A DNA stretch of 60,148 nt, filler included, from Dimargaris cristalligena (Eukaryota), in the NCBI GenBank assembly GCA_003614675.1. It is 6 parts of 6 records of this genome, joined end to end, with 100 filler letters (N's around TTAATTAATTAA, not from the genome) between each part and the next. Parts side by side here need not be neighbours in the genome. Positions count along the whole stretch, not along the records: positions 40,213 to 50,132 come from ML003220.1; 5 more parts are not named here. One strand, 5' to 3'. This document shows, in pieces, positions 23,139 through 50,232 of the stretch. The translations under genes were made by a program, and so were the position numbers. A model generated the notes under the pieces. It saw only the letters and a list, made by a program, of their open reading frames with translations. It was not told the DNA's origin and ran no database searches. Numbering within the stretch: the first letter of the stretch is position 1; each line of letters opens with the position of its first letter.

Positions 23139-24911
23139 ATGACCGTAATAACCCAGCGCCAGTTCCTCGAACGGGTCCGCGAGGGCCAGGCCGTCTTTAT
23201 TTTCGACCAAAAGGTCTATCGGGTAGACCGCTTTTTGGACAAGCATCCCGGAGGCCGTCTCGCCATCTGGCACATGATCGGCCGCGATGCTACTGCCGAA
23301 ATCCGCGTGATGCACCCCGACTGGGTCATCACCCGCAAAATGCCCTGCTACTGCCTCGGTGACTACCGCCCCGACGATTTATCGTCCGATACCGTGTATG
23401 ACTCCGACGAGGCCGTGCAGGGGTTGGCAGTGAAAGAGGAAGAGGAAGAGGAAGAGGAGGAGGAGAAGGAGGAGAAGGAGGAGGAAGATAAGGAGGCCAC
23501 CACACCCCTGGCGACGGAAAAAGGGGTTGACGACCCCCTCGCCTCGACCCTCTTGACCCCTCCTTCCCGTACTACTACCACTGCTAGCAGCCGCATGGCC
23601 ACGAGAGAGGCGAAACATGAAGGGAGCATACCGTCCACCCCTACTCCCGCGACAACTGCGAGAGCCCTGGGCGGCAAGGCTGAGGTGATCCCCCCCCTAC
23701 TGTCGACGAGCCAGCTGCTACCCAGCCACGATTCGATGCCCGAATTCCGGGACGTCACCACCCGGACCGTCAACCGGCAAGTCGCCCGTCGTATCGATGC
23801 CCAGGCCGAAGCGGAAGAAGAGGCCCACGCAGATATCGACTACGAGGCCATTGAACGGGACTTTTACCTGCTCCAACGCCAAGTAACGGACCTCGGTTTG
23901 GAGCGGACCCCGTTCCGCCGGTACGCCGAGGAATGGGGCCGGTACTCATTGTTCCTGGCGGGTATGATTGGCCTGGGTCTGTGGGGACCCCAGCATTGGC
24001 TGAATTACACCGTGAGTGCCTTGTCGGCCTCCCTCCTGTGGCAACAGCTGGCTCTGTTCGCCCATGACCTGGGCCATAATGGAGTCACCCACGACCTCTT
24101 CTGGGACGGTTTCATGGGGGTGATGATTGCCGATTTTATCGGTGGATTGAGTATCGGGTGGTGGAAGAAGAACCATAACGTGCACCATATTGTCACCAAC
24201 GACCCCGAACATGACCCCGATATTCAGCACCTGCCTTTCTTTGCCGTATCCACCAAGTTCTTCCGGAACTTACGGTCGAGCTACTACGGCCGGAAGCTGC
24301 CTTTTGATGCTTTTGCGGCCGTCCTGATCCCGCTCCAGCACCTACTGTACCTTCCCATTCTGTGTTTCGGACGGTTCAACCTCTACTTCCTCTCCCTTTC
24401 CCACCTGTTCACCGCTGAATTCGCCCCCTGGCGCTGGCTGGAACTGACCGGGATCGCTTTCTTCTGGACCTGGTACCTCACCTTCTTGTCCAGCTTCCCC
24501 ACCTGGCAATGGGCTTTGTACCATATGGTTCTCGCCCACATGGGAACCGTTATCCTGCACCTCCAAATCACCCTGTCCCACTTTGGTATGTCCACCACCT
24601 GCCCCGACCCCGACCGCGAGTGCTTCGCCGCCCGCCAGCTCCGTACCACCATGGACATTGATTGCCCCACCTGGTTCGACTGGTTCCACGGCGGTTTGCA
24701 GTACCAGGTCGAACACCACTTGTTCCCCCGTCTGCCCCGCCACAATCTCCGCCAGGTCCAGCCGCTCGTCAAGGAATTCGTCGCCCGTCACCCGGGTCTG
24801 CGCTTCTACTCGTTTAATTTCATCGAGGCTAACCAGCTGATGTTGGAGAGTCTGAAGTCGGTGGGTGAACAGGTCCAGAGCTGGTTGCACATTAAGTCCA
24901 AGACCAACTAA
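23139..24911 (+). CDS. SLD1: Cytochrome-b5-fused sphingolipid delta-8 desaturase (590 aa)
   Basis: N-terminal b5 domain with HPGG; His boxes HDLGH, HNVHH and QVEHH. WWKKNHNVHHIVTNDPEHDPDIQHLP and a long b5-to-desaturase linker are typical of fungal delta-8 sphingolipid desaturases. Confidence 0.88.
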   Translation: MTVITQRQFLERVREGQAVFIFDQKVYRVDRFLDKHPGGRLAIWHMIGRDATAEIRVMHPDWVITRKMPCYCLGDYRPDDLSSDTVYDSDEAVQGLAVKEEEEEEEEEEKEEKEEEDKEATTPLATEKGVDDPLASTLLTPPSRTTTTASSRMATREAKHEGSIPSTPTPATTARALGGKAEVIPPLLSTSQLLPSHDSMPEFRDVTTRTVNRQVARRIDAQAEAEEEAHADIDYEAIERDFYLLQRQVTDLGLERTPFRRYAEEWGRYSLFLAGMIGLGLWGPQHWLNYTVSALSASLLWQQLALFAHDLGHNGVTHDLFWDGFMGVMIADFIGGLSIGWWKKNHNVHHIVTNDPEHDPDIQHLPFFAVSTKFFRNLRSSYYGRKLPFDAFAAVLIPLQHLLYLPILCFGRFNLYFLSLSHLFTAEFAPWRWLELTGIAFFWTWYLTFLSSFPTWQWALYHMVLAHMGTVILHLQITLSHFGMSTTCPDPDRECFAARQLRTTMDIDCPTWFDWFHGGLQYQVEHHLFPRLPRHNLRQVQPLVKEFVARHPGLRFYSFNFIEANQLMLESLKSVGEQVQSWLHIKSKTN

Positions 24912-27130: not shown

Positions 27131-27549
27131 TCTGCATGTGCTTGTGCGCCGTCTCTATTGGCTGTCATTGGCTTACTCCCCTCCTTCGACACCATTACCT
27201 TTTGTTTCGGCTGAGTCGCGCTCTTTCCCCAGCTACTCAGTTGCCTCTGTATATGTAGTATAACTTCCACTAACTTACTTAGTCTAGCCTCTCTCAAGCG
27301 CTCCAGCTTGGTTGCCTTTCTTCGCTCTGCTTTTCCTACTATTTCTCCATAGTAATAATAATCATAATAATATTTCATACTCACTTCTTTAGTTCCTTTC
27401 TACTGCCTTATTACGACGCCCCTTCCCTATACCGGCCAGCTGGTGGTTCTGGTCTTTTTCCTGCTATATAGTTGTGCATGGTCTCACCCTTTTCGGCCAC
27501 TTTGCTTTTTCACCCTTTCTTCCATCGTGTTTCTCTACTAAACTAAACC

Positions 27550-28752
27550 ATGGCCCCGCCTCCGCCCACTGCGGTTCTAACTGAGACCGTTTCAACGCCG
27601 GCTCCCGTCTCCCCGGGATACACGAAGCCCGTCAATTCCATCGCTGATCTCCCCAAGGCCACCGTCGAAAACGTCCAGGATGATCCGCGCCATCCCCTCT
27701 ACCTCGGCGACTGGGAGCGTTCCGTGCCCGGCAAGGACACCTACTTTGCCATTGACGACCTCGACGAACCCCACATCAAGCGCAAGAACGCCATCCTCCA
27801 AAAACACCCCGAAATCAAGGAGCTCTACGGCTGCGACAAGAACACCATCTGGATCACCATGTTGGCCGCCGCCTCCCAAGTTGCCCTGGCCTACCTGTTT
27901 GGCCGCGTGCTGACCGACTACACCTGGACCATGGTACTGGTGGCCTACGTCGTCGGTGGGTCGTTCACCAGTCTCTATGGCGTGATTATCCACGAAACCT
28001 GCCACTCGCTGGCCCACACCAACCACTTCGTCAACCGCCTGGTGGGACTGTGCGCTAACATCGGTATCGTGTTCCCCATTGCCATGTCCTTCCGGCGCCA
28101 TCACCTCGAGCACCACACCTACCAGGGTGTCATTGGCAAGGACCCCGACCTGCCCCTGGACTGGGAAGTCAAGATTATTGGCAACCACCCCTTCCTCAAG
28201 ATTATCTGGGTCTTCTTCTACCCCCTGATGTACGTGGTGCGGGGTGCCGCCCAGGGTAAGCGTCTGACCCCCTGGGAAATCACCAACATCTTCTTCACCC
28301 TGTGCACTGACACCCTCATCTGGTTTTACTGTGGACCCCGCGGTTTCATCTACCTGTTCATGTCGCTCTGGCTCGGCTACGGCTTCCACATTGGTGCCGT
28401 ACACTTTATCCAGGAACACTACACCTTCACCGACGGCCAGGAAACCTACTCGTACTACGGTTCCGGTAACAAATTATTCATGAACATCGGCTACCATAAC
28501 GAACACCACGACTTCGTGAAAATCCCCTGGTCCGGTCTGCCGGCCGTCCGCGATACCGCCCCTGAATTCTATAACACCCTGTCCTACCATACCTCCTGGG
28601 TCATGGTCCTATGGATGTTCATCACCGATACCATTCTGGCCCCTCAGAGTCGGGCTGTGCGCTTCTACCGGGATCATCTGGTGGGCCGTCGCTTCTTCAA
28701 GGTCCCGGGCTTTGGCGCCACCTCCCCAACCCTCTCCAAAAAGGCCCAGTAG
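27550..28752 (+). CDS. DES1: Sphingolipid delta-4 desaturase / dihydroceramide desaturase, DEGS family (400 aa)
   Basis: Lipid_DES-type motif DEPHIKRKNAILQKHPEIKELYG; His boxes HETCH, HHLEHH, HNEHH; GQETYSYYG. No b5 domain. Confidence 0.92.
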   Translation: MAPPPPTAVLTETVSTPAPVSPGYTKPVNSIADLPKATVENVQDDPRHPLYLGDWERSVPGKDTYFAIDDLDEPHIKRKNAILQKHPEIKELYGCDKNTIWITMLAAASQVALAYLFGRVLTDYTWTMVLVAYVVGGSFTSLYGVIIHETCHSLAHTNHFVNRLVGLCANIGIVFPIAMSFRRHHLEHHTYQGVIGKDPDLPLDWEVKIIGNHPFLKIIWVFFYPLMYVVRGAAQGKRLTPWEITNIFFTLCTDTLIWFYCGPRGFIYLFMSLWLGYGFHIGAVHFIQEHYTFTDGQETYSYYGSGNKLFMNIGYHNEHHDFVKIPWSGLPAVRDTAPEFYNTLSYHTSWVMVLWMFITDTILAPQSRAVRFYRDHLVGRRFFKVPGFGATSPTLSKKAQ

Positions 28753-30080: not shown

Positions 30081-30180
30081 NNNNNNNNNNNNNNNNNNNN
30101 NNNNNNNNNNNNNNNNNNNNNNNNTTAATTAATTAANNNNNNNNNNNNNNNNNNNNNNNNNNNNNNNNNNNNNNNNNNNN
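30081..30180. other. Artificial contig spacer
   Basis: N44-TTAATTAATTAA-N44. Confidence 0.99.
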
Positions 30181-32192: not shown

Positions 32193-34037
32193 TCAGGTCT
32201 TAAAAACATGTACCACTCGGGTAATCCGTTGCCGGCAAATGGGACACTCGTTGGTACTCGTTTGCAGCCGCTTAGCACAGTCCATACAGGTGGCCATATG
32301 ACCGCATTCCAGTATGATGGAATTGATGAGAGAATCGAAACAAACGCGACAGCTATTCTCGTTATTATCAGGGTCGCGGGTATATTCGGCTACACAGAAT
32401 CACGTATACATAGTTATAGAGCAGGGTACCAAGTCATTAGCCAGGTTATGATAAAATAGTTTACATCGGCCCAATTTAAATAATTCACGCTCACGAAGTG
32501 GCAGTGAGCTCTCCGCATGTGACCCCTAATGGCTTCCAAAAAATACAAGAGATGTATTCCAGGCCCACTGTTTAGGAACATTCCAGAGTAGAAATCCGAA
32601 CTGTTTAGGCTTACCTAGTTCCGCCCGAGTATTGTCGACCAGCGTACGAACTTTTTGAACTAAGTCGCTCTTTTCAATGACGTCCCGATGATCAATGTAA
32701 TGTTCATCCAAAATGACCTTTAACTGGCGAGCCGGTAATTGAGCAATGTCCATTCGGTTAGCAATAATGGCCGCGATGGTGGGTGGTGGGGGCTGCGGTT
32801 TTGGTTCCGCTGGCGGGGCGGCCGGCGTCGACGATGATGACGACGGCGGGGGGGTCTCCCGCGGGTGGGCTGGCGTGGGCCCGGTTGGTCTATGGGAGGT
32901 AGGGGGTGTAGCGGACGGAACGAACCCTTCCCAATCCCCGGAAGTATGTTCCGCGCCAAAGTTATTCCCGTACAGCTGGGCGATTAGCGAATCCATCCCC
33001 TCCAATTCAGCGGCCGTTAGGGGGCGCGTAAAGGACCATGTTTGGTCATTCACCACGGCCTCTGCTGGTCGCGGACAGGGGATGGGGATATGATTGCGGC
33101 GGTAGGCCCGTTCGTAGCGATCCGCCAAGGGCTGGGCACTGTGGATCAAATGAGCCAGTTCGGCTTTTTCCATGAGACCGCCCCGCCGTCTTCCTATCCC
33201 GCCTCCGCTCCCCAGTATGGGTAATTCGTAGGCCCGGGCGTAGGCTTGCAGTAGCCGGGTGGGTACATTACCCAAGGTTTCCGCATCGAGTAAGCCCAAG
33301 GCTAGGAATCGGTCACATGGGGCACAGACCCGGGCGGGGGCCGCTGGGTCATTATAGAGGAATTTAGGGATAAGCCAGCGGTGGGGAGTGCAGGCGGCAC
33401 AAAGAACGCTACCGCAGTTGCGGCAGTGGTGCTTCGGACGTAGTAGGTTGAACGAGAGGCCGCAGCCGTAGCAGGCATTGTATAAAGCCGGGTCTTTCAG
33501 AATGGGAAGGGTGTGGATAAATGGGGGGCGGCAAGTGAGGCCAGGGGCGGTGGCTCTTCGCCTTGATTCGGCCAGTAAGGGCTGACCCTCGGGGGTAAGC
33601 ACATAACTTTGGGTAGAAGGGGAAATGGAAGTGGCAGTAGAAGTTGAAGTAGAGGTCGTTGTACTCGAGAAGAGTTGTTGGGGTCGGGCATTGGCCAAGG
33701 GTGGCGGTTGTACTGACGACGACGACGACAATGACTCACGGTTGATATGGGAGGAGTTTTTCGTCGCATTCCGCGAATTGTCCCAACGTGGCGAAGAGGG
33801 GGATGGGCTCGGACTAAAGAACCGGGTTAAAGTGCGTCGAACGTCGGGGAACAGGTTCGTTGTGGTAGACTGGCTACTACGGCCTGTGCCCGAACCGGTA
33901 ACGGAAGCCATGGGGTCGTCAGAGTCGAGAGTATCCTCAGGGCCAGTTATTTTAAGGGGTCGAAGGGCTATCCGAAGCGCCGTCCGCTCGGGCTCGGGAA
34001 AGTCATCGAAAACGGTTTCGGGAACGCCCGGCTCCAT
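32193..34037 (-). CDS. FYVE + two SAP-like + C-terminal RING-HC E3 ubiquitin ligase, RNF34/RFFL-like (539 aa, 2 exons)
   Basis: Exons 34037-32615 and 32389-32193; intron 32614-32390 (GTAAGC...GCTAAT...TGTGTAG) joins them in frame. FYVE CYGC...KHHCRNCG...CAAC...CAPC; SAP-like [27 protein letters not shown]; exon-2 [29 protein letters not shown]...CPICR, which the ORF track misses. Confidence 0.9.
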
Positions 34038-35460
34038 GGTTCACAGAGAGTTTTCCTGCCCCGGAATTCCCTGGCTGGGTGGGTAGCCTGTATACGGGGT
34101 TAGGAGGTAGGAGGAAAGTAACGGCGCCGCTCTCGAGTAGAATACGCTGGAGGGATGAAAAGGAGGAAATTCAGTAGAGGAATGGTGTGGGTTGGTCGAT
34201 AAGTGCAACTTATAAGCTAGCAGGAGTGAAGGGCTAGACGGTAATTAAATATGCCAAGAGTAGTATAATAAGTAGTAAGGCTGGGCTGTCGTCGGTCAGT
34301 GTATAAGTGAGACGACTGGTAAATACTAGAGTAAAAGTAGTGAGGGTTGGCGCTGCGTGCTGTACGGGAGTTGCTAATATAAAGACTAGAGTAAAAAGCA
34401 AGGAATGGTGGCCGTGAGGGCACTAAAATATAGATGTTAAAATCATCTAGGCATTTCCCTGGCTATAATAGCCAACACAGCCTTATAGGCAATCCCTGGC
34501 GACAAAATTGGTAGTTGGAGATATATAGGGAACCCTTCCTTTTAATTTCAGTAGTCGACGCATTCGACTTCGCCTTTACCGTTTGGGTATATTGAACGAT
34601 AAATCCGTATACTACAGTACCAATATAGCCAAGGAAACGGGGTTAGCGAAGCATCTGAGGTGGTAGAAGGGTCCAAAACCGATGCCTAAACCTTCGCATT
34701 TCCCTCGCTCCACGAACTTGCTGGACTGGTGGTGAATGGCTTTGTATGTTGCATCCCAACGAGGAAGGATGAAGGACAAGATGATCTCGTGGTTCAACTA
34801 AAAGTTGGGCACCACCAGCCAAATTAGGCTAAATGGGTTGGAGTTATTAAGTCTCACGGATATTGGTGGGATACTTTACTTTGGACTACTTGTTATAGTA
34901 TCCTCCTCTCCCTTTCTAAATGTACAACAGTCATTTTGCCCAACTTCAGCATTGCCCAAATTCCACGCAATACATGATCGCTAGGGTCACATGGTCGGTT
35001 TCTATGTTATTGGTGCTTACCATTCTCAGGCTCACTGAATTAGGGCGGCCCCTCCCTTTTCATGGGTACATGGTCTGCCGCAAATCACTAAGCACCAACC
35101 TTCACCGCCCATTTGTAAGACACATTTGGAATTAATTGACTAGAAATTAAATAGAGGGATATGGGGGATTGGCCAATGGTATGCGATGAGGACGCGGGGC
35201 ATGTAAATGAATTTAATAACATGAAACTATTGAAACGTTAGGACTGAGGAAATAATGTACAAAAGGTAAGACAATCTTATGAAATGAACAGGGTGAAGGA
35301 GGAGGGAGTGTATAAAGTCAATTAAAACGTAGATAATGAAGGGGGAAAAGGACTTTGGGCGTGTCAGTAATAACGGCACGTTCACTATTCTTCCACTGAA
35401 TCGATTTTCGGCGGAATAATCGCCTCGATGGCACTGAATATAAGACGTGGGGCTGGAAGG

Positions 35461-38016
35461 CTACATGAGGTTGCAGCTGTTGGAAAAAAACATAGACGTT
35501 TGCAACTTTTCGATCCATTCACTAATCATGCGCAGTCGTTCCCGGGTGGATCTTGTTTCCAGCAATTTGTATTTTTCATACATATCAATGGGTAATACCG
35601 TGGCCATCCAAAAGGAAAAGGGTTCGGGGGTAGTCGGCATGGGCCCGGCATTCTCTTCTAGCCGGTTGATAAGCCACGGCGCTTTGCTTTCGTGGAGCCG
35701 TTGGATGAACTGGCGACAGGTGAGCATCAGCTGTCTGATGTGGTGGCGTTGGGGTCGAACGGGCGGCGGGGATGCTGGGGAGGTGGGTCGGCGATAGGGG
35801 TGGGGGTGGGGGTGGCGGTGGCGGTATGAGGTTGACCAGGATCCATGATGATGCGATGTGGGGCGGGTGAAGCGAGGAATCGGAGTTTTTGTAGAGGAGT
35901 ACTGCCCAATGGCAGAACTGGCGTTGCTACGGGCCGATTTCGGTGGGGATGGGGCTAGGGAAAAATTGGTTCCATTCACAGGCTTTAACAATGGCGAACC
36001 ATCGGTGGATCCATCACCAACCGAGGACGAGCCATCGTACATGGACTGATCGGACGTTAAATCGCCGGAGGCTATGATAGCGGGAGCAGAACCACCCCGC
36101 CGGGGATCATTTACAGGACCCAATGGCGTCGTGGTCAGCGAACCACTGCGCCGGGAACGGGTTTTAGAATGGTCACGCCGCCGGGAAGGCGAGCGGTCGA
36201 TGTGAGTACGGTCTTCCGAATCGGTGGTAGTAGTGGTGGTGGGAGAATCGTACCGTGGCATATTGAGGTGCTCCAGCTCAACCTCCAACTTGTCTACATC
36301 ATCCAACCGTTCCAATCGACCCGTCCAGTACTCGTTCCGCATGGCGTAGCTCAGCAATCGGAATCGATAAATACCGCGGACCTGGACGACCGATTGGCCG
36401 TCCGGGAGGTAGCGTACGGATTTGATTTCCATCATGGTACCGTAATCCATTACCGCCGGATCAGGCCGGCCATACCCTACCCCGATTTTGGCCGAGGGCG
36501 GGCCGGGTATACACATGGCGAATTGTTTCTGGCTGGCCTGCAGGCAATGGCGCATCATTAGCCGGTAGCGGGGTTCGTAAATGTAGAGTTGGCTGGGCAT
36601 GGTCGGGAACATTAAGCTGCACACAAAAATGGGAACTTCCAGCTGCCGCTGCTGAATCTCGGCCGCCTCGGCGGCGTGGCGGTCGGCCATTTGATTCGGA
36701 AACAGAGCCTCGCAGAGGGCCACCAGCGCTCGATTGGGCTGGTGGTCAACGTAGTCCGCATACCGGCCCAATGAATGGCGACAGAGCGGGCAGGCGCCGT
36801 TGTGGTCTAGCGTGCGCAGCAAGCAGGATTGGCAGAAGGTATGACCGCACAGGGTTGTGACAGGACGGATAGGGAGACTGCAACAAATGTGGCATTCTAG
36901 CTCAGTGAGAAGGGCTTGCTGATCAACAGACCCGGGGGAATAGAGGGTGGTATTGGTTGATGACTCGGGAGTTATAGAGCCTAGTCTAGCATCCCCGGAA
37001 GCGGGACTGGGGAGGCCTGGAAAAATACCCGGGGATGAGGTGCATTCCGTAAGCCATTCCCTTTGGTAGGTATCCATCGAACCAGTAGAAACAGACTTGG
37101 AGGTAAGATGGGATGCCTCGGATGAGGGTAACGAGGATGGGACTGAGGGGACATGGTCGTCAGCATCGCTCAAAATGGCGTGGATACTGAGTGGATTAGA
37201 GACACGGCGGGCAACTTTCGGACCCAGCATAGCCGGAGGCTGCCGTGGTGAAGGACTACTCGCAGGAGTTTCGGAAATAAAAGGACTGAGCTGGGCGATA
37301 ATATTGGCGAGGGTAATGTCGGTTGGACAGTGCGGTGAGTATTGAAATGGCTGAAGGGTGTGGGGCTGATGGATGGGGTACTGTGGTAAACAGCTGGTGG
37401 AAGTTGATGAAATTGAGGTAGAGAGTGGCGAGGAAGGGCACAACAAAGGAGACGTAATATCGGGATGGGAGTCACCAGCGGTCTGAACGGGACAAGAGAC
37501 CACGACCGGTGGGGAAGTAAATCGATAGGTGGAGTATACGGGTGTAAAATAGTCGGACGCGGAGTCTGAATCCGAATCGGAGGACGACGGCGAAGATGGT
37601 GGCGATGAATTCGATGATAGTGAGGTGGGGGTCCACCGAGAGGCCTGTGGCGGAAATAAATTGGGTGTGTAGGAGGGGACCGATGGAGCTGTAGGGAGAC
37701 AGGTGCGACATATAGAATAGCCACAGACGAGGGTGACCGGCTGGACCAGGGGTTGGTGACACGCCGTGCACTGAAGAATATCGACTAGATGGGACGACGA
37801 TGACCAAGCAGAGGCGATAGGTGGTGGTGGTGGTGGCGTAGGGAGTGACGACAAGCTAGGCAAGGGGGATGGTGGTGTACAAAGAGACAGTGCCGAGTGA
37901 TTGGCGGCGTTGGACATGGCTTGCGGATGGGAGTGGACGCGGGGTGGCGCGGGGGGTGCCGATAATGACGGGCGGGTGGGTGGTGTGGTCGGATGAACAG
38001 ATGTCAGGAGAACCAT
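35461..38016 (-). CDS. crgA: RING-RING-LON(N-terminal substrate-binding) E3 ligase with C-terminal CaaX, CrgA/LONRF family (851 aa)
   Basis: RING1 CTACHQPLVQPVTLVCGYSICRTC; RING2 CHICCSLPIRPVTTLCGHTFCQSC...CPLCR; LON domain VPIFVCSLMFPTMP...YEPRYRLMMR; ends CNLM*. The symbol is a family-level call, orthology not shown. Confidence 0.85.
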   Translation of the reverse strand: MVLLTSVHPTTPPTRPSLSAPPAPPRVHSHPQAMSNAANHSALSLCTPPSPLPSLSSLPTPPPPPPIASAWSSSSHLVDILQCTACHQPLVQPVTLVCGYSICRTCLPTAPSVPSYTPNLFPPQASRWTPTSLSSNSSPPSSPSSSDSDSDSASDYFTPVYSTYRFTSPPVVVSCPVQTAGDSHPDITSPLLCPSSPLSTSISSTSTSCLPQYPIHQPHTLQPFQYSPHCPTDITLANIIAQLSPFISETPASSPSPRQPPAMLGPKVARRVSNPLSIHAILSDADDHVPSVPSSLPSSEASHLTSKSVSTGSMDTYQREWLTECTSSPGIFPGLPSPASGDARLGSITPESSTNTTLYSPGSVDQQALLTELECHICCSLPIRPVTTLCGHTFCQSCLLRTLDHNGACPLCRHSLGRYADYVDHQPNRALVALCEALFPNQMADRHAAEAAEIQQRQLEVPIFVCSLMFPTMPSQLYIYEPRYRLMMRHCLQASQKQFAMCIPGPPSAKIGVGYGRPDPAVMDYGTMMEIKSVRYLPDGQSVVQVRGIYRFRLLSYAMRNEYWTGRLERLDDVDKLEVELEHLNMPRYDSPTTTTTTDSEDRTHIDRSPSRRRDHSKTRSRRSGSLTTTPLGPVNDPRRGGSAPAIIASGDLTSDQSMYDGSSSVGDGSTDGSPLLKPVNGTNFSLAPSPPKSARSNASSAIGQYSSTKTPIPRFTRPTSHHHGSWSTSYRHRHPHPHPYRRPTSPASPPPVRPQRHHIRQLMLTCRQFIQRLHESKAPWLINRLEENAGPMPTTPEPFSFWMATVLPIDMYEKYKLLETRSTRERLRMISEWIEKLQTSMFFSNSCNLM

Positions 38017-38989
38017 GGAAATGGTTTAATTTAAACCAGTATCCAAACGCGAAGTATTGGGGAAATATGTATAGGAAATGATGTAAATGAGTAGGGTCAG
38101 CGAGCAAATTAGAGAAAGGGGGCAGTCAGGGATAGGTGAGGGCCCTATGTAAAATCTAGGGCATTTGGATCAGATAACCACCACGCATGGAGGGTTGTGA
38201 AGCGAAAATAGAAGAAAGGGGGGCCAGAGTGATTCGAGAGTTGCGACTAACTAACGAATAGCAGTGAGATATTGTAAATGGGCAACCAGATGATAGACCC
38301 GTTATACCAATTTTAAGAAGTAAAAGTCCATAAATAAGCCGACGGTATTAATATATATATATATATATATTGACCTAATGCTGTAATTGTAGGGGAATAA
38401 TGGATATCTATCTAGCTGCAGTGGATCGCGAAATACTACGCCTAACACCGATTAGGAGCAACCACGGGGAAATACGGGGGTGACCTAAATAGGTATGGTG
38501 GAGCACGATGGAACTTGGGGTAGGGATCAAAGCTTTACCCGTTAATGTCCGATGATCAGTACTTTTTGGGGGGGGGGCGAAGAATGTGACACGAGGGGTG
38601 GGATGGAATAGGGTGGGGGTGGCTAAGGCTTCTCCCGGTGGATACTATTACGGCCTGCCGCTTGCTGGTAAGTTCTAAGGATAGTATAATCCCGGGGGGT
38701 TTTAGGTGAAATGATTATTGTTGGAGTCGAAAGGGGATATAGGACGGTGGTTAAAAAGGCCAATGGAACGCCTTAACTACGCCGGTAAAGTTAAAAGACT
38801 CGGAGTGTTTGGTTGGCAGAAGAGTTGACGGTGGTGGGTCTCAGTTAAGCACAGGGTGCAATAATAAAACGGTAAGGCTAAGCAGGCAATTAAGGAAATT
38901 GGAGGATTACAGACGTAGCTACGTAGGGAGTGTCAAGGGGTGTGTTCAGAAATGGCCAACCGAGTGGCTGTGATGGACAACCGGTGGAG

Positions 38990-40112: not shown

Positions 40113-40212
40113 NNNNNNNNNNNNNNNNNNNNNNNNNNNNNNNNNNNNNNNNNNNNTTAATTAATTAANNNNNNNNNNNNNNNNNNNNNNNNNNNNNNNN
40201 NNNNNNNNNNNN
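40113..40212. other. Artificial contig spacer
   Basis: N44-TTAATTAATTAA-N44. Confidence 0.99.
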
Positions 40213-42316
40213 TGTGGCCCCCCCCCCCCCCAAACTACAAGGTATTAATGGCTAGAACTAACTATTAGTAGATAGTTTTTGTGGGTGTAGGCCTAACTGG
40301 GCCTTCAGAGTACTCTCTGGTTCACATAGGTACCCCTAATCCAAAATAAATTTTTATATAAAACAAAAAGACAGATTTCTACTTTTTATTGCTCCAATAT
40401 TTGTACTCTTTTGCAAAGCCAAGGTGCTTTATCTAGTTAGTAGGTAATATATATAGCTTCTTTCTTGCTATCGGGTGGTTTATATTGGCATCTTTCAATG
40501 CCCTTTGGATTATCTATCATAATATACTTTAACCACTGAAGATGGTAGCCATAAAGCTCTAGTTAGTATTAAATAGATGGGTTACCATGTATCTGCCTAG
40601 TCTACACTTATCAAAATTATTGAGGATCTTGTTACAGCCCTCATGTTGCTTAGGAGCCTTTAAGCTAATATCATTACTTATTTTTATTATCCAGTAAACT
40701 ATAGCTTATGAAATACGGAATTTTTTATATAATTTTTAAGATCTTTATACCCTCTTTAAATATATTGTAGAGAATTTCTTGTTTCTTAGGGGACAAATCT
40801 GTATATGACATGATGAAGAGGGGACACGAATTAATTAGTTATGGTATAAACTATTTAAATAGAAAGAAATATGAATAAAAAAAATCGGGGCTCAAAATGT
40901 GGTCCCCTATCACATTGATTTTTTGTCTCAGGTTTGTCTCACTTTTGCTGGCCATGACTGTACGAGTACTTTAGAGATAGTTTGTTGAGCCCTAAGTTTA
41001 TTTCATCAAGCAATGCATCCGTTGTGAATAAAGCATATTCGTAGCCACCTAATCACAGCTATTTCTACGATTTCGTTTGGAAATTTACCTGAATTTATTG
41101 GTCTATTTGAATAAGTCTATATGCCTCATACACGCCTGATTTTTTACACCCAACTCTTATCTAGTACTGAAATATAAATTCCAGTATATGTCACTTTTAT
41201 ATGCGATGATTCAACAATGGTTGTGTAGGGTTGTATTTAACGATATTCTTTAGTGGGATTTGGCCACCTCTGAACCAATATAGAGTCCATATCGTGGGTT
41301 TTGGGTGAAAGTAGCACCATAGGGTATCCTAATAAGTACCCCTACTTGGCCGAGAATACTAATGGGGGAGGGGTTGAAGGGATATCGCCATTTGGCTGCT
41401 TAAAACCCCAATACTAACTGAGGGTCAATTTCATAATGATAAATGCTGATTTTAACATGATATATATTGCATCAATCCTGTGCCTCTGGGGTCAACTAGT
41501 TAGCCTGAGGCGCGAGTGGTATCCAGTATTAGTTGTTTTGGAGCACAGTGGATTGGGTGTTTTAAAGCCCTTCACCGCTAGCATCGATAGATCGGGGTAC
41601 AATCCTACCAGAGTAGTTAGTATGTACGGCCTCGGTATTTTTTCAACCACGGCCCATATGTCGGGAGTAAGCAAGAAATCTTTGATATTTTACAATGATC
41701 GAAAGTCGCTGTATTAACCACTTGGGCGGACAGAGGCTGCCATGTCCATCAACATCTACTAATTGGCTCTATTATGACCAAGTTCAGTTGACTATTGGAT
41801 AAATCACTTAGCTCGTTCCCATGAATGATTATGGTTTAAATAAACCTCATCTACCCCACCGACTCAATCACCACATTAGCGAATATATAACATACCCTCT
41901 ATTCAACGATAGAATTCCACACTGATTAGTTTACAATGACATTTTAGTTAAAACCAATACACGGTGGTAGTTCCATGACCATAAAAAAATTAAAATTGAA
42001 TATCCCAGAAGGCTGACTAAAGTCAATCAAATATGTTGAAGCAAAAGGTGTCTAGCCCACCATAAAATATGGCAAATCTGGGTGCGGCATTAATAAGTAT
42101 AAAACGGCCATTAAAAAAGCGAAAATTAGCAACGAAAAACAAAAAGAAAAGATAGAAAAGAGATAAGAATAGTAGTAGTGGTAGTAGTAACAGTAGCAGT
42201 GCCTAATTCGTGGTGCTCAGCAAGCCCATCTTCTCATTCCAGGGGCCCAAGCCAAAGCCAGGTGAGTTAGCGACGTCGATATAGCTAATATATAAAACAA
42301 AAAGCTGCGAAAAAAG

Positions 42317-45226
42317 TTAACCGCTGCACATAGTGCAGGCGTCTTTGTTTTCAATGGAGCACATGAGGGCCGCCAATTGCCGACTGGCTTCCTCTTCGCT
42401 GGTTACCGAAGTGCCCACATCCGCACCCCCGGAACCCGCCAGACCGCCAGCCACGGGAGTCGATGGGGCCGCCCCTGAACCAGGGCTCGCCGCCGAAGCA
42501 CCACCACCGCTGCTAGTGCCCGTCGCCGCCGTTGACAATGTTGTTTTCGGTGTAGGACCGGCGGTACCTTCCCGCAGAGCCAGTTGATCGACCGTAAATT
42601 TAATGGCATCGACGGCCGGCCGGGTGCGCAGGTAATACATCCCGGTCTTCAAACCCTTTTTCCAGCCGTAAAAGTGCATGCTGGTCAGTTTAGCGAAGTC
42701 CGCCTCGGCCATGAAGATGTTCAACGACTGGGATTGATCAATAAAGGCCCCGCGGTCGGCGGCCATGTCGATGATGACCTTCTGGGACAGTTCCCAGGCC
42801 GTTTTGTACAGATCCTTGATTTCCTGCGGGATGGAGGGTACATGTTGGACCGACCCGCTGTCGGAGATGATGCGGTTCTTCATGTGGTCGTTCCAGAGGC
42901 CCAAGTCCACCAAGTCGCGCAGGAGCCAGGGGTTGACGACCTGGAACTCACCAGCTAGAACGCGGCGGGTGTAGATGTTGCTGGTGTAGGGTTCGAAACA
43001 TTCGTTGTTACCCAGGATCTGGGAGGTGGAGGCCGTGGGCATGGGCGCCACGAGGAGAGAGTTACGGACACCGTATTTGCGGATCTTCTCCCGGAGGGAG
43101 TCCCAGTCCATCAGGTCGGTGGGTTCCGCACCGTCCCACATATCAAACTGGAGCAAGCCCTTGGACATGGGCGAGCCTTCGTACGTCTCATAAGGTCCCA
43201 ATTCCTGGGCCAGTTCGCACGAGGACTCCAGACCGGCGTGGTAGATGGTCTCGAAGATTTGGCGGTTCAGTTTGCGGGCCTCGGGCGAATCAAAAGGCAT
43301 GCGCATTTTCATAAAGGCATCAGCCAGACCCTGGACACCCATCCCGATGGGCCGGTGGCGGAAGTTGGAGCGCTGGCATTCTTCCACGGGGTAGTAGTTG
43401 ATGTCGATGATTTTGTTCAGGTTGCGGGTCACCACCTTGGTCACACTGTGCAGACGCTCGAAATTGAACGTGTCTTTATCATCGACGAACTGGGGTAGGG
43501 CAATGGAGGCCAGGTTGCAGACGGCTACTTCATCGGCGCTGGAGAATTCGACGATTTCGGTACACAGGTTGGAGCACTTGATGGTCCCCAGGTTCTGTTG
43601 GTTGGACTTGCGGTTGCAGGCATCCTTGTACAGCATGAAAGGATTGCCGGTTTCAATCTGGGCCTCCAGGATAGCGTACCAGAGCTTCTGGGCGGGCAGG
43701 GTCTTGCGCGCCAGACCCTTCTTTTCGTAGCTAAGGTAGAGCTGGTTGAATTCCTCGCCCCAAGTTTCGTGCAGGTTGGGGGCTTCGTTGGGGCAGAACA
43801 GGCACCAGTCACCGTTCTCCTGGACGCGCTGCATGAACAGGTCAGGGATCCACAGGGCGTAGAACAAATCGCGGGCGCGGCTCTCTTCCTTGCCGTGGTT
43901 CTTGCGCAGATCCAGGAATTCGAAGATATCCGGGTGCCAGGGCTCGAGGTAGATGGCGAAGGCCCCGGGGCGCTTGTTACCGCCCTGATCGACGTAACGG
44001 GCGGTATTGTTGAACACACGCAGCATAGGGACAATGCCGTTGGAGTAGCCGTTGGTGCCGGCAATGTAGGAACCGGTGGAGCGGATATTGTGGATATTGA
44101 GACCAATGCCACCGGCGGTCTTGGAGATATTGGCGCAGGTCTTGAGGGTGTTGTAGATGCCTTCGATGGAGTCATCCTGCATGGTAAGCAAGAAGCAGCT
44201 GGACAGTTGGGGACGCGGGGTTCCGGCGTTGAATAGGGTGGGGGAGGCATGGGTGAAGAACTTCTCGGACATGAGGTTGTAGGTTTCAATGGCCGCATCA
44301 ATGTCCTCACCGTGGATACCCACGGCGACGCGCATCACCATGTGCTGGGGGCGCTCGGCCACTTTGCCGTTGATGCGCAGCAGATAGGACCGTTCCAAGG
44401 TCTTGAAGCCGAAGAAGTTGTAGTTGAAATCACGGTCGTAAATGATGGCGGAGTTGAAGCGGTCGGCATTCTGCATGACCACCTGGTAGGTGTCCTCACT
44501 GATCATGGAGGCGGGCTTGCCGGTCTTGGGGTCCTTGTAGTGATAGAGATCCTCGATGGTGGCCGAGAACTGTTTGCGGGTCTCCTTGTGCAGGTTGGAG
44601 ATGGCAATACGTGCGGCCAGGATGGCGTAATCGGGGTGCTTGGTGGTCAGGTAGGCGGCGGTTTCGGCGGCCAGGTTGTCGAGTTCCATGGTGGTAACGC
44701 CTTGGTACACACCCGTGATAACCTAGGGGGTGGGAGGAAAAGAAGGGGTGGGGGACATAGGGTTAGATAGAGGCACAGGCCAGGGTGATTGAACCAATAG
44801 GCCCCAGGGCTGTATTACGATGGGCCAGCAGTGCGGCAGGTTAGTGGTGTACACTGCCTGTGTAGCAAGGTTGTGTGGGTGGGAGAGCAGTTTTAATATA
44901 CGGTACCTTTTGGGCGACGGCGGGGGGATCGACGTAGTTGGTGTCGAGGCCATAGCAGAGCTTGACGATCCGGGCGGTGATCTTGTCAAAGGCCACGCGT
45001 TCACGGCGACCGTCTAAGGAAGACAGATGTTAGTGGTGCGAGTATAAGATGCTGGAACCGTCGGTTAGTAAGAGATTGCGGGCCACAACCGGGTTGAAAA
45101 ATTGGATGCCGCCGAGAAGGCTGCCCGAGAGTGAGGGGTCTCACCGGGACAGCCTCGACTAAATGCACCTCGGTCGAATTAAACTTGGGTAGGGAAGACG
45201 GACTTACCTCGTTTAACGACAAACAT
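42317..45226 (-). CDS. RNR1: Ribonucleoside-diphosphate reductase large subunit, class Ia (843 aa, 3 exons)
   Basis: Exons 45226-45208, 45013-44907 and 44722-42317, with GT-AG introns, give [22 protein letters not shown] (ATP cone). Also QLSSCFL, SNLCTEI, GMYYLR and C-terminal CTMCSG. Confidence 0.97.
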
Positions 45227-47523
45227 AGTGGTTGCGGTAGGAGTTGGTAATAGGAGCACCAAGCAGTTGGGGTTAAAAGATAAAGAATGGCCAACGAACA
45301 AAGCTGAAAGACCTACTGTGCTTGTTTTGGTAAGCTATATATAATAGGCGAAAAAGACAGCCAGTGAAAAAAACCAGAGTTGGAAGGGAGAAGGAGTTGT
45401 TTACAGGAGAGCTAATTATCGAGGAGGCGCAGCGAGGGTGGGATGTTTATATATCGACGGTGGGATTCTAAATAGCCACCACCTCCCAAGCCAAGCCAAG
45501 CCAAACCAAACCAAAATACGGCCTGTTCTCGATTAGTCTGCGGGGGCTCTAAACCACGCGAGTCGTTGGCAAAAGGTAAACAAACCCCAACCAACCCCAT
45601 GGCTGAATAAGTTGGGGTCGGTTGGACAGAGCAAAGACTGAGTGATTCCCGTTTCAGCTTACTAAGATCGAGGATGAGAACACGGCCATTCATTATACAT
45701 ATCTCTTGTTATCTTCTACTCCCGTAAAATAGAAGAGCCTCCTTGGGTCTTTAAGTATGTGCCACCCCTGGTTTTATTATTTGCAAATCAGTTTAGTAAG
45801 CTGAGACCGGCTTTGATATTTATATATATATATAATATTGTTTAGGATAAATAAAGGGTAATAACTCTACCACGTCCATTATTCCATCCCCACGCTTCTG
45901 GCGTGTTACAATAAGGCACCCCAGTAGTCTCTTCACTCATTGATTGCAAGGAGTGATAAAATCAAAGGGATGGGTTGGGCATGTGCGCTCACTCCCCGTT
46001 TTTAACCTCCTTTCCCCGAAGTCGATCCCTAAAATCAATTGATATGTTGTTCCACAATTGGCACGGTAAATCCAATACCATTGAAACCACCAGTCCAGTT
46101 CACCCGGCCATACTATTTTCCCCTTTGGTATACCAAATAAGCCCACATGCCGCCAAGTCAAGGATTATATCCGTTGCCTTTGGCCTGGCTCGGGTAAACC
46201 TTGCCACCACCAATACCCGCTGCAAGTGAACGGTTGGCTGTCCAGCGATTAGCCAACGGGATGGATTAGCGTGCGAGAGACAGAGAATGAGACGGAGAGT
46301 GGTTGGCCTACTTGGTTTGGCCATAATCAAATCAGCGATGCTATTTTCATCATAGGTGTATTAAGGTTTTGGATTAATCAGATGGAGTTCACACTCACTG
46401 GTTGATTCAATAGCGGCGAATCGCCCCCAAGCTATTAGGGCTGGTCAGAATGCGGTTCCGCTTGATTTAGTATGCTTTAACTGATGCTAATTTGTTTAGG
46501 ATAACTAGGGTAGTGCTGGAGATATCGCCGCTCCGCTATTTGTGCCAAGGCATATCGATGCCAGTGAGTGCTATAATTCAACAAGTGTTATGTACATGCT
46601 AGGCGAAAATAAGTCCAGCCATATGCCGCTCGAGTGAATCCACCTATAGTTATCCAGGCCGGTTTACCGGCTTCATCGACTTTGCATGTGGAAATGGTTC
46701 CAAATGTTTCCTTCAAATCTACATTATCTGTGCCCGGCCAAGCACTATTTGTATATCACTCGGTATCCATGCCGTGGGCTCCCACGCAACATGGTGTACA
46801 TGGGGTGGGCTTGGTGGTATGCCAATGCACACGTGTACCCTCCATTGGTTTCCATGGTGCTGTTCCCACTGCTGATGCCATTTTTGACCTACTCGCAGCT
46901 GCTCCGGTCACTGCCTGTAGGTGGTGGATAGGTAGGTGTTGGTAGAGGTGTGGTGGTGATTACAAATTAACGTATCCCATCCCAGTGCGGACCTGCTTTA
47001 CCTTATACGTCTGCGGTTTAGGGCTTTTGTTTACAATGATTGGCATATCACGTGATAACTAACCAATCAAACCCCGTGATCTCTATGGATCGCAAATAGG
47101 CGCATGTATTATTCAGCCTACTACACAATACGGAAAGCATACTACTAATAATGACTGTTAAGGTTAATAAGGAGGGGGGGGATCAATAGATAAGGTGGTG
47201 TGCTGAGTAAACGCCGGGCTGGCACCCGAAACACACTCATAGATTTGAGACAACCCGCCCAGCTCCTCCCTCAGTCACAGTTAAACGTCACCAATGTGGG
47301 GTTCACACGATATCAGGCAATATCTACCAGTCTTCGTTGGCATTTCCCCTTATTTAACCCGTAGTGTTCCCGTTGATGGCGGCTCTATCTCAACGTACTC
47401 TCTCCTCTCTATTCCACCCCTTTCCCCCTTAGCCACCACTTTTCTATCCGTTACCTTTACCAGCCGTCCGCACCCTCCTACCCTGCCTCCATTTCCCCCT
47501 CCGTCGACTAGTCCCCGATAACC

Positions 47524-49349
47524 ATGTCGTACGACCAAAGCCGTAGTGAGAACCCTGGCAAGGACGCCGCCAGTACCGTTATTGTCGGTAAGTAGAGCCA
47601 ACTCCCTCCCTTACCCTGACCTATCCGTTTTCCCGTCGTCCGTGGCCCTTTGGCCACATCCAGCAGCACCCCATTCACACCCTCACTCTTCTTGCCCAGT
47701 TCCACTTCCAACGTCGGCGGTATGCCATATGTGATGTATCTAACCCCGCGATTGGCTCCTTTGTATTTACCACCCCGCCCAACCTGTCTTTGGCGTATCC
47801 ATTCCCACCTCTCTTACGCTCTCTAACAGTGATTGGCGCGTCCGGCGACTTGGCCAAAAAGAAGACCTACCCGGCCCTGTTCGGCCTCTTCCGCAACGGC
47901 TTCCTGCCCGACCGGGTCCACATCATTGGTTACGCACGCAGTAAGCTGGACAAGGAGGCCTTCCGCGCCCGCATCACCTCCGAGAAACTCAAAGATGCTC
48001 CCAAAGAACAGCTGGCCCAGTTCCTCGACATTTGCGACTATGTCAGCGGCCAATACGGCAGCGCCGACGATTTCGGTACCCTGAACAAGGTGATTGAGCA
48101 TCACGAGGCCCGCTTCCTGGATCAGGCCAAACAAACCAACTCTGGCGTCAACAACGACCGCCGGGTCCGCGTTTTCTACATGGCCACCCCGCCCTCGGTC
48201 TTCGTCCCTGTGGCCAAGAGTATCAAGGCCGGCGCCTATTCCCCCGACGCCCACAACCGCATCGTCATTGAAAAGCCCTTTGGCCGGGACCTGGCCACCT
48301 CCCGCCAATTCTCCGAAGAATTCACCCAGCTGTACCGCGAAAACGAAATCTACCGCATCGACCACTACCTGGGTAAGGAGATGGTCAAGAACATGCCCAT
48401 TATTCGGTTCGCCAACCTGTTCTTCGAATCCATCTGGAATCGCGAGCACATTGATAATGTCCAAATCACCTTTAAAGAGGCCTTTGGCACCCAGGGGCGC
48501 GGCGGCTACTTTGACGAATACGGTGTCATTCGGGACGTGATGCAGAACCATATGGTCCAAATGCTGTGCGTCATGGCCATGGAAAAGCCCCGTTCCCTCG
48601 ATGCCGATGACGTGCGTTCGGCCAAGGCTGACTTGCTGCGCTCGATCCCGCCCATCAAATTGGAGGACGTAATTCTGGGGCAATACACCGCCAGCGCCGA
48701 CGGCAAAGAGCCCGGTTACACGGACGACAAGACCGTTCCCGAGGGCTCCCTCTGCGCCACCTACGCTAGCATGGTTCTTTTTATTAACAACGAGCGCTGG
48801 CGGGGCGTGCCGATTATTATGAAGGCCGGTAAAGCCATGGACGAAGCTAAAGTGGAAGTCCGCGTCCAATTCAAGGACGTCACCGACCCTTTGTACCAAA
48901 ACATCGCCCGTAACGAACTGATTGCCCGGGTGGGCCCTACGGAGGCCGTGTACCTCAAAATCATGAACAAACGCCCCGGCCTCGTCAACGAACCCGTCAT
49001 TTCCGAGCTCGACTTGTCCTACCGGCGCCGTTACTCCGACGCTAAAATCCCCGAAGCTTATGAGGCCCTTCTCCTCGAAATTTTGGCCGGGGATCAGAGT
49101 CACTTTATTCGCGGGGACGAGCTCGACGCCGCTTGGGAGATCTTCACCCCCCTATTGCACCAAATCGAAAACGAAAAAATTAAGCCCCGTCCGTATGCCT
49201 ACGGAACGCGTGGGCCCGAGGGGGCCGATGACTTCATCCAGAAATACGGGTACAAACGTCGGTCCCAGGCTTACCACTGGCCCACCGACCTGGGCCGTCC
49301 CATCCAGGAAGTGGCCAAGGAATACGCCGAAAAGAATCTCAAAAGCTAA
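47524..49349 (+). CDS. ZWF1: Glucose-6-phosphate 1-dehydrogenase (527 aa, 2 exons)
   Basis: Exon 1 47524-47587, intron 47588-47829 (GTAAGT...CTAACAG), exon 2 47830-49349. Motifs VIGASGDLAKKK, EKPFG, RIDHYLGKE, RGGYFD, DVMQNH. Confidence 0.97.
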
Positions 49350-50050
49350 GCTATGAATGATGACGACCCCTTCTTTTCATTGATTTTTTTTTTCGTTCGT
49401 TCTTTTGGGCACGAGGGTGGTTCAACAGTGTGGAGCCCTGTCCCATCACCCCATTTTACCCCACCCTCGAACTTACGTCGTATTCCTCTGGTGAGAGTCC
49501 CTCATGTCTATGAATTGATGGTGCGTGGGGAGCTCTGGGCGGAAATTGGGTATCATATTGCCAAATTCCCAGTTGGGGTGTTCTGGTCGATCTCATTGGG
49601 GGCCCCATTCTCTCCGTCAAACCATGGCTAATCTCACATCATTGTCAACAAATCTTTAAACTAGCCCAACCCCATCCGATTCCGGTTTTTTAAATACGAC
49701 CCACCATACTGATATATTGGGGGGCGTCGCTCTGAAGGGCTTCAATAACTGGCTGGATAGCTATTACAAACAATTATAATAAACGCGAAGAAAAAAAAAT
49801 ACTTTATTTTGAGGGTTGACTCTTCGATTTAATAGCAACGCTTCCAGCTGGAGAATCCTGCCAAGCCATCCTTAGAACCCACCAGGCCCCACTAAGAACT
49901 CTTTAATATTAGTGATTTGACTGAGTATAGCCATCTAATTCTGGAAGCAAAGCCCGATGAGAAGGGTGAAATAAACTAATCTGGGGGAAATTATGTAGTG
50001 CTGCAAAGTGCAGAATCGGGAAAGTTTATTCGTTATCCTTTTTACTTGTT

Positions 50051-50121
50051 TATCTGGGAGAAGTTCATCCAAGCTGTATAACGAAAAATCCATTTGATGA
50101 GGCAAGTACTACTGGTTGAAA
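50051..50121 (+). mobile_element. MITE family copy 5 (left half, near contig end)
   Basis: TGGGAGAAGTTCATCCAAGCTGTATAACGAAAAATCCATTTGATGAGGCAAGTACTACTGGTT aligns with 16870-16932. Confidence 0.75.
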
Positions 50122-50132
50122 ATAAACATTCA

Positions 50133-50232
50133 NNNNNNNNNNNNNNNNNNNNNNNNNNNNNNNNNNNNNNNNNNNNTTAATTAATTAANNNNNNNNNNNN
50201 NNNNNNNNNNNNNNNNNNNNNNNNNNNNNNNN
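50133..50232. other. Artificial contig spacer
   Basis: N44-TTAATTAATTAA-N44. Confidence 0.99.

Follow-up and report, generated by a model that had tools for sequence, protein, structure and literature searches.

An out-of-frame PTS1-like signal beside the stop codon of the G6PD gene of Dimargaris cristalligena

Peroxisomes need NADPH of their own, and the sharing of cytosolic enzymes with peroxisomes is an active question. The window analyzed here, a stretch of 60,148 nt of DNA from Dimargaris cristalligena, contains a G6PD gene in which the codons for a peroxisomal PTS1 stand beside the stop codon and one base out of frame, which raises the question of whether this tag is used for a minor peroxisomal isoform, is left over from an older terminus, or is there by coincidence. 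The likeliest reading, to which we give about an even chance, is that the out-of-frame K-L-stop is a displaced remnant of an ancestral in-frame PTS1-like terminus; some low-level use of the displaced G6PD tag may persist.

The G6PD gene and its stop codon

The G6PD gene occupies positions 47524–49349 and has a single intron; all features described here are on the plus strand. Exon 1 (47524–47587) consists of 64 nt from the ATG, namely MSYDQSRSENPGKDAASTVIV plus the first base of the next codon, and its joining to exon 2 gives an N-terminus matching the annotated protein (P0002). The only annotated intron (47588–47829, 242 nt) has a GTAAGT donor and a CTAAC two bases 5′ of the AG, and its placement rests on the 100% match of exons 1 and 2 to the annotated protein, which has 527 aa and is 100% identical to the G6PD of the window. 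Exon 2 (47830–49349, TAA stop included) carries Pfam matches to G6PD_N (PF00479, 182 bits) and G6PD_C (PF02781, 348 bits), both above threshold, which place the product in the G6PD family. Solved structures of human G6PD align with query residues 18–505 (E about 1e-157). The conserved fold ends at W505 (49278–49280), the alignment of the human chain ends at human W509, and tail residues 506–527 are common only to Dimargaritales sequences. Human G6PD ends in HKL. A ribonucleotide reductase is encoded upstream of the gene, and nothing peroxisome-related was found adjoining it in a Pfam scan of 29 of the 60 ORFs with 110 aa or more, overlapping shadow ORFs having been dropped by eye.

The frame-0 codons at 49329–49349 read GAA AAG AAT CTC AAA AGC TAA (E K N L K S stop), and the TAA (49347–49349) is followed by G. 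In the +1 frame, AAG CTA TGA (49348–49356) encodes K L stop, the core of the cryptic PTS1, which is completed as SKL or AKL according to the point of entry into that frame. Rereading of the sequence bore out the original prediction here: the gene ends in NLKS-TAA followed by G CTA TGA, omission of T49347 puts SKL in frame as AGC AAG CTA TGA (S K L stop), and entry further upstream yields an end in PKRISKAKL, within a +1-frame open stretch of 129 codons detected by ORF scan (48967–49356). In-frame readthrough adds the extension AMNDDDP...SNHG (ORF 49350–49631) and, as also predicted, no PTS1. An open +1 stretch of 129 codons is not unusual for this gene, a second one (48094–48540) having 148 codons. 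The SKL and AKL ends are confined to the +1 frame, and the frame-0 product ends in LKS in two assemblies, so that the translated protein itself carries no PTS1. As in IDP2-type genes, an uninterrupted +1-frame PTS1 with its own stop lies less than about 30 nt past the normal stop. An A4 run with AAA in phase (49341–49344) is a candidate +1 slip site, and a perfect tandem repeat, AAGCT AAGCT (49343–49352), which probably arose by slippage duplication, has its copy junction spanned by the present TAA.

An assembly error at T49347, which the original prediction had named as one case against it, is very unlikely because an independent second assembly has the same G6PD end: its protein (P0122, KAJ1988406.1), encoded on a 56.7-kb contig, has 527 aa, ends in EKNLKS and differs by the single substitution I513V. 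The same NLKS end in both assemblies therefore indicates that this state is genomic. Five listed sequencing runs contain the stretch: four belong to a single study, possibly its source, and the fifth, with 0.90 of its sequence words, to a second study; no RNA run was among those listed. It could still be supposed that T49347 is a sequencing error, or belongs to one of two alleles, and that the true or second allele ends with SKL in frame; the first assembly is fragmented, the contig bearing the gene being 9,920 bp long, a non-haploid D. cristalligena has been suggested (PMC9866270, selected passages), and two near-identical G6PD copies are present in each of Tieghemiomyces and Dispira simplex. 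We consider this highly improbable, since not only does the I513V-bearing assembly yield the same product, but T49347 lies outside any homopolymer, and in both Tieghemiomyces and Dispira simplex the two copies have the same end.

G6PD termini in relatives and the displacement of the tag

The link of G6PD with PTS1-like ends that had been proposed is well supported, an in-frame x[KR][LIMF] end being present in 50 of the best 120 homologue matches listed; seven of these 120 end in [SAC][KRH][LM]. Within Dimargaritales, which form a 100/100 clade in the tree with an inner branching order that is not settled, all three Dispira sequences end in frame in EKNKL, both Tieghemiomyces copies end in EKKLQD, and the D. 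verticillata protein ends in QDKEQ; three of the four lineages lack an in-frame PTS1-like end. The Dispira sequences are KAJ1970057.1 of Dispira parvispora and KAJ1658484.1 and KAJ1651750.1 of Dispira simplex, the Tieghemiomyces copies are KAJ1925211.1 and KAJ1930571.1 of T. parasiticus, and D. verticillata is represented by a fragment. Kickxellales have paired G6PD paralogues, one ending in GKL and the other without it, and the two forms occur together in Coemansia sp. RSA 1200, Martensiomyces pterosporus and Coemansia sp. RSA 2703. Other in-frame ends are SKL in Piptocephalis and PKI, PKM or SKI in chytrids. Metagenome contigs were scanned with two degenerate patterns of the Dimargaritales tail motif, which matched 0 stretches; the first pattern required DLGRP and so would miss the DLGKP of D. 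verticillata, which the second admitted.

Comparison of the window sequence with Dimargaritales protein tails points to a putative 3n+1 insertion relative to a Dispira-type end, comprising the ten bases CTCAAAAGCT (49338–49347). Their removal would give GAA AAG AAT AAG CTA TGA, that is E K N K L stop, as in the Dispira proteins. This arrangement, in which E K N is followed by 10 nt and then K L stop where Dispira has EKNKL, makes displacement by indels the likeliest reading. The ancestral G6PD would have carried a PTS1-like end in frame, as in many early-diverging fungi including Dispira, and small indels in the fast-changing 22-residue tail probably shifted the reading frame in the D. cristalligena lineage. 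These indels would sum to a net 10 nt at 49338–49347 and include the 5-nt tandem duplication, whose junction makes the TAA. Because the frame would have been moved in this way, the protein now ends in NLKS. The old K-L-stop codons would now lie one base out of frame within the first 7 nt of the 3′ UTR, presumably free of selection, and with no programmed recoding or splicing signal, the sole source of PTS1-bearing molecules would be ribosomes that slip +1 by error near the stop, at background frequency.

The lability of the tail end among Dimargaritales (EKNLKS, EKKLQD, QDKEQ and EKNKL) favors such a displacement. Several points weigh against it. A neutral remnant of 9 nt is expected to decay quickly, and the G6PDs of the nearest sequenced relatives share only 73–80% protein identity, so the displacing event would have to fall late on a long terminal branch. 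When the 5-nt duplication alone is removed, frame 0 reads ...NLKSYE-stop and K-L-stop falls in the other shifted frame; this duplication by itself thus does not account for displacement of an in-frame KL, and at least two events are needed. The paired GKL and non-GKL paralogues of Kickxellales also suggest that peroxisomal G6PD matters in the subphylum and that a species with a single copy might need dual targeting.

Frameshifting, chance and splicing as alternatives

A functional cryptic PTS1, with a few ribosomes shifting +1 and a minor G6PD isoform being imported by Pex5, is possible but rather doubtful. A +1 shift on AAA-A (49341–49344) would give ...NLKAKL, with the P-site Lys-tRNA predicted to slip from AAA (49341–49343) to AAA (49342–49344) and leave GCT AAG CTA TGA to be read, and a shift over the T of the stop (AGC-TAA-G) would give ...NLKSKL. 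Because the minor isoform would be importable by Pex5, one gene would serve both cytosol and peroxisome, as with the pre-duplication yeast IDP2. Both predicted ends, SKL and AKL, are canonical tripeptides with basic residues upstream, the shift alters only the last 1–3 residues, outside the conserved core, and no second D. cristalligena G6PD was found among the best 120 matches. Selection also accounts more easily for a 9-nt signal that is still intact after a long terminal branch, and the Kickxellales GKL and non-GKL paralogues mirror IDP2 and IDP3. There is direct precedent in another NADPH-producing enzyme, yeast IDP2 (PMC4526572, selected passages), and a PTS1 isoform amounting to about 1% can equalize peroxisomal and cytosolic concentrations (PMC4207609, selected passages). 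That D. cristalligena has only one G6PD gene, whose product reaches the peroxisomes by way of +1 frameshifting at or near the stop, exposing AKL or SKL, is a tentative proposal. Just as tentatively, frameshifting would mean that one problem has three solutions, an out-of-frame tag in Dimargaris, a weak in-frame NKL in Dispira and GKL/non-GKL paralogues in Kickxellales.

Set against this, nothing marks the stop site as programmed. No shift-prone element stronger than the A4 run is present, and AAA-A contexts occur in phase four times in the gene. Antizyme-like programmed +1 frameshifting combines a slow or weak stop context with a stimulatory RNA element, and was rejected as a model for this stop, which is TAA-G. 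No RNA structure was detectable by folding, the 136 nt around and after the stop (49335–49470) folding no better than shuffled sequences (z −1.52, 16 of 200 shuffles as good), a lack of predicted structure that is in itself weak evidence. Codon rarity was likewise not found at the shift site: AAA and AGC are ordinary codons in the gene, AAA being used 17 times vs 18 for AAG and AGC being the second-commonest Ser codon (5 of 24). According to selected passages of PMC4207609, TAA is less leaky than TGA and TAA-G is not a leaky context. The three Dimargaritales lineages lacking an in-frame PTS1-like end would also fit a relaxed need for the signal. UGA CU-type readthrough to a PTS1 was rejected as well, given the TAA-G stop and an in-frame extension ending in SNHG.

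Mere coincidence of base composition, with the K-L-stop unrelated to the xKL ends of the homologues, is improbable. The window has 81 stop-to-stop ORF ends when ORFs of 100 aa or more are counted. An out-of-frame [SAC][KRH][LM]-stop that is uninterrupted and no more than 30 nt away was found at the G6PD end and at 0 of the 80 others. Together with the enrichment of x[KR][LIMF] ends in the G6PD family itself, this count indicates that the signal is above chance, and the K-L-stop is preceded by the residues E-K-N here as in Dispira. These arguments are to be read against a case chosen post hoc from many windows, and against the yeast base rate: about 1% of yeast genes have a broadly defined PTS1-like motif, counted in all frames, no more than 30 bp from the stop, and in some 40% of them the motif is interrupted (Yanagida et al., PMC4526572, selected passages).

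Alternative splicing would reach PKRISKAKL if a 3n+1 intron within the final 400 nt were removed in a minority of transcripts. The two GT-AG segments of the original prediction do exist, at 49250–49307 (58 nt, GTACAA) and 49193–49268 (76 nt, GTATGC); with the +1 frame open from 48967 onward, many deletions would reach the tag. Fungal PTS1 isoforms are indeed made by alternative splicing (selected passages of the review PMC3798809 on Freitag 2012, Kabran 2012 and Strijbis 2012). The sequence nevertheless disfavors this route, which we regard as very unlikely whether one of these two segments or another intron is meant. There are 307 candidate introns, defined as GT/GC-AG segments no shorter than 40 nt whose removal leads into an x[KRH][LMIF] end. 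None of them has a GTAAGT, GTGAGT or GTATGT donor, none has a YTRAY motif 5–45 nt 5′ of the acceptor, and in only 72 is the acceptor YAG. The conserved core (to W505) is spared by only two, with GCCGTC or GTCCCA donors and AAG acceptors, and the 58-nt candidate deletes Y503 and W505, the aligned counterparts of the final conserved residues in human G6PD. These assessments apply general fungal donor and branch rules together with the gene's own intron (GTAAGT, CTAAC-AG), because the window provided no clean intron training set: an ORF-joining screen gave 3,875 candidates, mostly false positives, and a stricter regex gave a mixed set of 27.

Implications and comparison with known systems

If the tag is used, it would be a second, independent natural example, after yeast IDP2/IDP3, of a "phenotypic mutation" leading to "genetic fixation," and would be new both for G6PD and for any lineage beyond the budding yeasts. 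The frameshift route would then have a separate origin in fungi far removed from yeast, serving another source of NADPH, and the neighboring clades would supply a comparative series of in-frame, out-of-frame and duplicated states. If it is a remnant only, the locus would show fast gain and loss of PTS1-like G6PD ends through small indels, and would warn that an out-of-frame PTS1 beside a stop can be a by-product of turnover.

To our knowledge, yeast IDP2 is so far the sole natural case of a +1-frame PTS1 in the 3′ UTR that is used via translational frameshifting. The original prediction knew of no frameshift route to a PTS1, which was mistaken: +1 translational frameshifts in yeast IDP2 expose a +1-frame PTS1 just past the stop (Yanagida et al., 2015, PLoS Genet, PMC4526572, selected passages). 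In the selected passages covered by our literature search, a frameshift- or splice-derived PTS1 of G6PD was not found. According to the same passages on IDP2, a +1-frame PTS1 shortly past the stop is present in four of five pre-WGD Saccharomycetaceae IDP2 genes, the mechanism is translational and not transcriptional, and in A. gossypii the shifted form accounts for about 28% of the protein (PMC4526572). Three of the genes, without any repeat longer than 3 bp, still worked with partial peroxisomal function, and function in yeast was established by complementation, mass spectrometry and microscopy (PMC4526572). The D. cristalligena gene resembles IDP2 in encoding an NADPH-producing cytosolic dehydrogenase with an uninterrupted +1-frame canonical PTS1 and stop only a few bases past the normal stop (AKL in A. 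gossypii), in having relatives or paralogues that carry the signal in frame, and in that a single-base deletion would fix the tag genetically. Unlike A. gossypii IDP2, which has a 6T slip site, its longest run is A4; the enzyme is G6PD, the lineage is Kickxellomycotina, and the tag is a prediction from sequence.

Other fungal systems are more distant. Readthrough at UGA CU likewise uncovers hidden C-terminal PTS1s on core metabolic enzymes, which are thereby targeted to both cytosol and peroxisome, among them the pentose-phosphate enzyme Rpe1 (Freitag 2012; Stiebler 2014, PMC4207609, selected passages), but it stays in frame, whereas the D. cristalligena G6PD has a TAA-G stop and an in-frame extension without PTS1. 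The splicing cases, U. maydis GAPDH, Y. lipolytica Mdh and C. albicans Gnd1, also involve a cryptic PTS1 or PTS2 and a minor peroxisomal isoform (PMC3798809, selected passages); unlike the gene studied here, they have real alternative introns. Of the C. albicans enzymes, Gnd1 is part of the oxidative pentose-phosphate branch that includes G6PD, and Zwf1 has been observed in peroxisomes (PMC3798809). Closest in family are the G6PDs of Dispira, Piptocephalis, Kickxellales and chytrids, whose PTS1-like ends are in frame; in Dispira, the tail that precedes K-L-stop is homologous to that of D. cristalligena.

The G6PD gene and its out-of-frame end

The window is composed of six contigs of approximately 10 kb each, linked by N44-TTAATTAATTAA-N44 (9968-10067, 20031-20130, 30081-30180, 40113-40212, and 50133-50232), and is not one chromosome stretch; therefore, the neighborhood of the G6PD gene is meaningful only inside 40213-50132. 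This contig carries G6PD with its out-of-frame tag and, upstream, a ribonucleotide reductase large subunit gene (42320-44722, minus strand). Genes also identified by Pfam encode a cytochrome-b5-fused fatty acid desaturase (23079-24908, plus), a sphingolipid delta-4 desaturase-like protein (27547-28749, plus), a RING and LON-substrate-binding protein (35464-38025, minus), an APH-family phosphotransferase (13455-14348, minus), and a FYVE protein (32529-34040, minus).

The G6PD gene (47524-49349, plus strand) comprises a 64-nt exon 1, a 242-nt intron with donor GTAAGT and 3' end CTAAC-AG, and a single long exon 2. Its product matches the annotated 527-aa "putative ZWF1" of the Kickxellomycotina mycoparasite Dimargaris cristalligena at 100% identity. 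A Pfam scan found both G6PD domains, and human G6PD structures match residues 18-505 at E ~1e-157. W505 (49278-49280) is the last residue of the conserved fold, and residues 506-527 form a tail seen, among the homologues compared, in Dimargaritales only.

In frame 0 the gene ends GAA AAG AAT CTC AAA AGC TAA (EKNLKS-stop), and the following bases, G CTA TGA, give AAG CTA TGA (K-L-stop, 49348-49356) in the +1 frame. If T49347 is skipped, the end becomes ...NLKSKL, and entering the +1 frame upstream yields ...PKRISKAKL. On re-reading, all sequence statements of the original prediction about this 3' end were correct, including that in-frame readthrough adds no PTS1, the C-terminal peroxisome-import tripeptide. 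An in-phase A4 run lies at 49341-49344, where a +1 slip of Lys-tRNA could provide a third entry point, giving ...NLKAKL.

An assembly error at T49347, the alternative raised with the prediction itself, is very unlikely because a second D. cristalligena G6PD (90% protein cluster; other assembly, 56.7-kb contig) is likewise 527 aa long and ends EKNLKS, differing by one residue, I513V. A sequencing error or an allelic difference is likewise rated highly improbable. The Kickxellomycotina genome paper names a second isolate of this species beside the first published one (PMC9866270).

Routes into the +1 frame

Alternative splicing had been proposed as one route. A full enumeration of GT/GC-AG pairs spanning 40 nt or more, with donors anywhere in 48600-49349, gave 307 whose removal produces an x[KRH][LMIF] end, and all reach the same K-L-stop. 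A YAG acceptor is present in 72 of these pairs; GTAAGT, GTGAGT, or GTATGT donors and YTRAY motifs 5-45 nt upstream of the acceptor are absent from all of them, and only two pairs spare the conserved core, both with poor sites. Splicing into the +1 frame is thus disfavored and appears highly improbable. The 58-nt intron originally suggested would take out Y503 and W505, the last residues aligning with human G6PD.

Nothing marks the site as a programmed +1 translational shift. [quoted passage not shown] AAA and AGC are ordinary codons within the gene (codon counts), and RNA structure in the stop region is not significant against shuffled sequences (z -1.52).

G6PD termini in related fungi

The C-terminus is x[KR][LIMF] in 50 of the 120 best homologues (GKL 9, NKL 7, PKI 6, PKM 4, SKL 3, and others) and canonical [SAC][KRH][LM] in seven; these rows are not phylogenetically independent, and all were kept, among them the query protein itself, a single plant protein, and a single fusion protein. 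Chytrid G6PDs (P0021-P0027, P0043, P0071, and others) very often end PKI, PKM, SKI, or SKM, a conserved basic-hydrophobic end differing from the classical SKL. Some Glomeromycota models (P0006-P0019) stop right after NWP (...NWPERQ, ...NWPGRQ), and others continue to ...NKL or ...SKL (Rhizophagus, Diversispora epigaea, Geosiphon); this variation could reflect alternative 3' exons, or gene-model differences hiding a PTS1-like end.

Within Dimargaritales, three Dispira sequences end in-frame with EKNKL, two Tieghemiomyces copies with EKKLQD, and a Dimargaris verticillata fragment with QDKEQ. In a tree of 23 rows hand-picked from 129 proteins, the order is monophyletic (100/100) with poorly separated internal branching. 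D. verticillata groups with Dispira (92/87), which agrees with the description of both genera as polyphyletic (PMC9866270). Tieghemiomyces parasiticus (P0003/P0123) and Dispira simplex (P0124/P0125) each have two near-identical copies on different contigs, a pattern that fits the non-haploid state suggested for the order (PMC9866270).

Several Kickxellales species have two G6PD types, ending GKL versus APE/APQ, with both present in Coemansia sp. RSA 1200, Martensiomyces pterosporus, and Coemansia sp. RSA 2703. In the tree, the GKL forms group in a distinct clade (99/100). Pairs by protein label are P0023/P0055, P0060/P0103, and P0091/P0106.

Origin and possible use of the signal

Among 81 ends of stop-to-stop ORFs of at least 100 aa across the window, only that of G6PD has an out-of-frame, uninterrupted canonical PTS1 within 30 nt. 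In yeasts, a broader PTS1-like motif was reported after ~1% of genes, ~40% of these being interrupted (PMC4526572). For the question of chance, the family context is more important than this count, and a merely coincidental K-L-stop beside the G6PD stop seems improbable. In the DNA, ten bases (49338-49347) stand between the E K N codons and K L stop; removing them would give EKNKL-stop, the exact Dispira end. A perfect 5-nt tandem, AAGCT AAGCT (49343-49352), forms the TAA stop at its junction, which suggests that the stop may have arisen by slippage duplication. Removing one copy gives ...NLKSYE-stop in frame 0 and leaves K-L-stop in the other shifted frame; we therefore infer that at least two small indels separate an in-frame KL from the present state, or else that the out-of-frame state is older.

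The K-L-stop may be the ancestral G6PD terminus, shifted out of frame by small indels and used as a PTS1 at error level only. We rank this displaced terminus first, at about even odds, because the end of the tail is visibly labile within the order, the in-frame signal is missing in three of four Dimargaritales lineages, and no recoding signal is present. A functional, IDP2-like cryptic PTS1 is less probable, the TAA-G stop, insignificant structure, and ordinary codons speaking against it, but is a serious rival because the 9-nt signal is intact on a long terminal branch, hard to call neutral, and because the pair of Kickxellales paralogues speaks for the importance of peroxisomal G6PD within the subphylum.

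A frameshift route to PTS1, which the prediction took to be undescribed, is known from yeast: pre-duplication IDP2 genes carry +1-frame PTS1 motifs just past the stop, and the shift is translational (Yanagida et al. 2015, PMC4526572). In A. gossypii, the shifted form accounts for ~28% of the protein, and three IDP2 genes whose longest repeat is at most 3 bp also had partial peroxisomal function (PMC4526572). A PTS1 isoform of ~1% can equalize peroxisomal and cytosolic concentrations (Stiebler et al., PMC4207609). If functional, the G6PD signal would be another case of an already-known frameshift-exposed PTS1, the mechanism itself not being new. The GKL and non-GKL paralogues of Kickxellales resemble yeast IDP2 and IDP3, which divided into a cytosolic and a peroxisomal copy.
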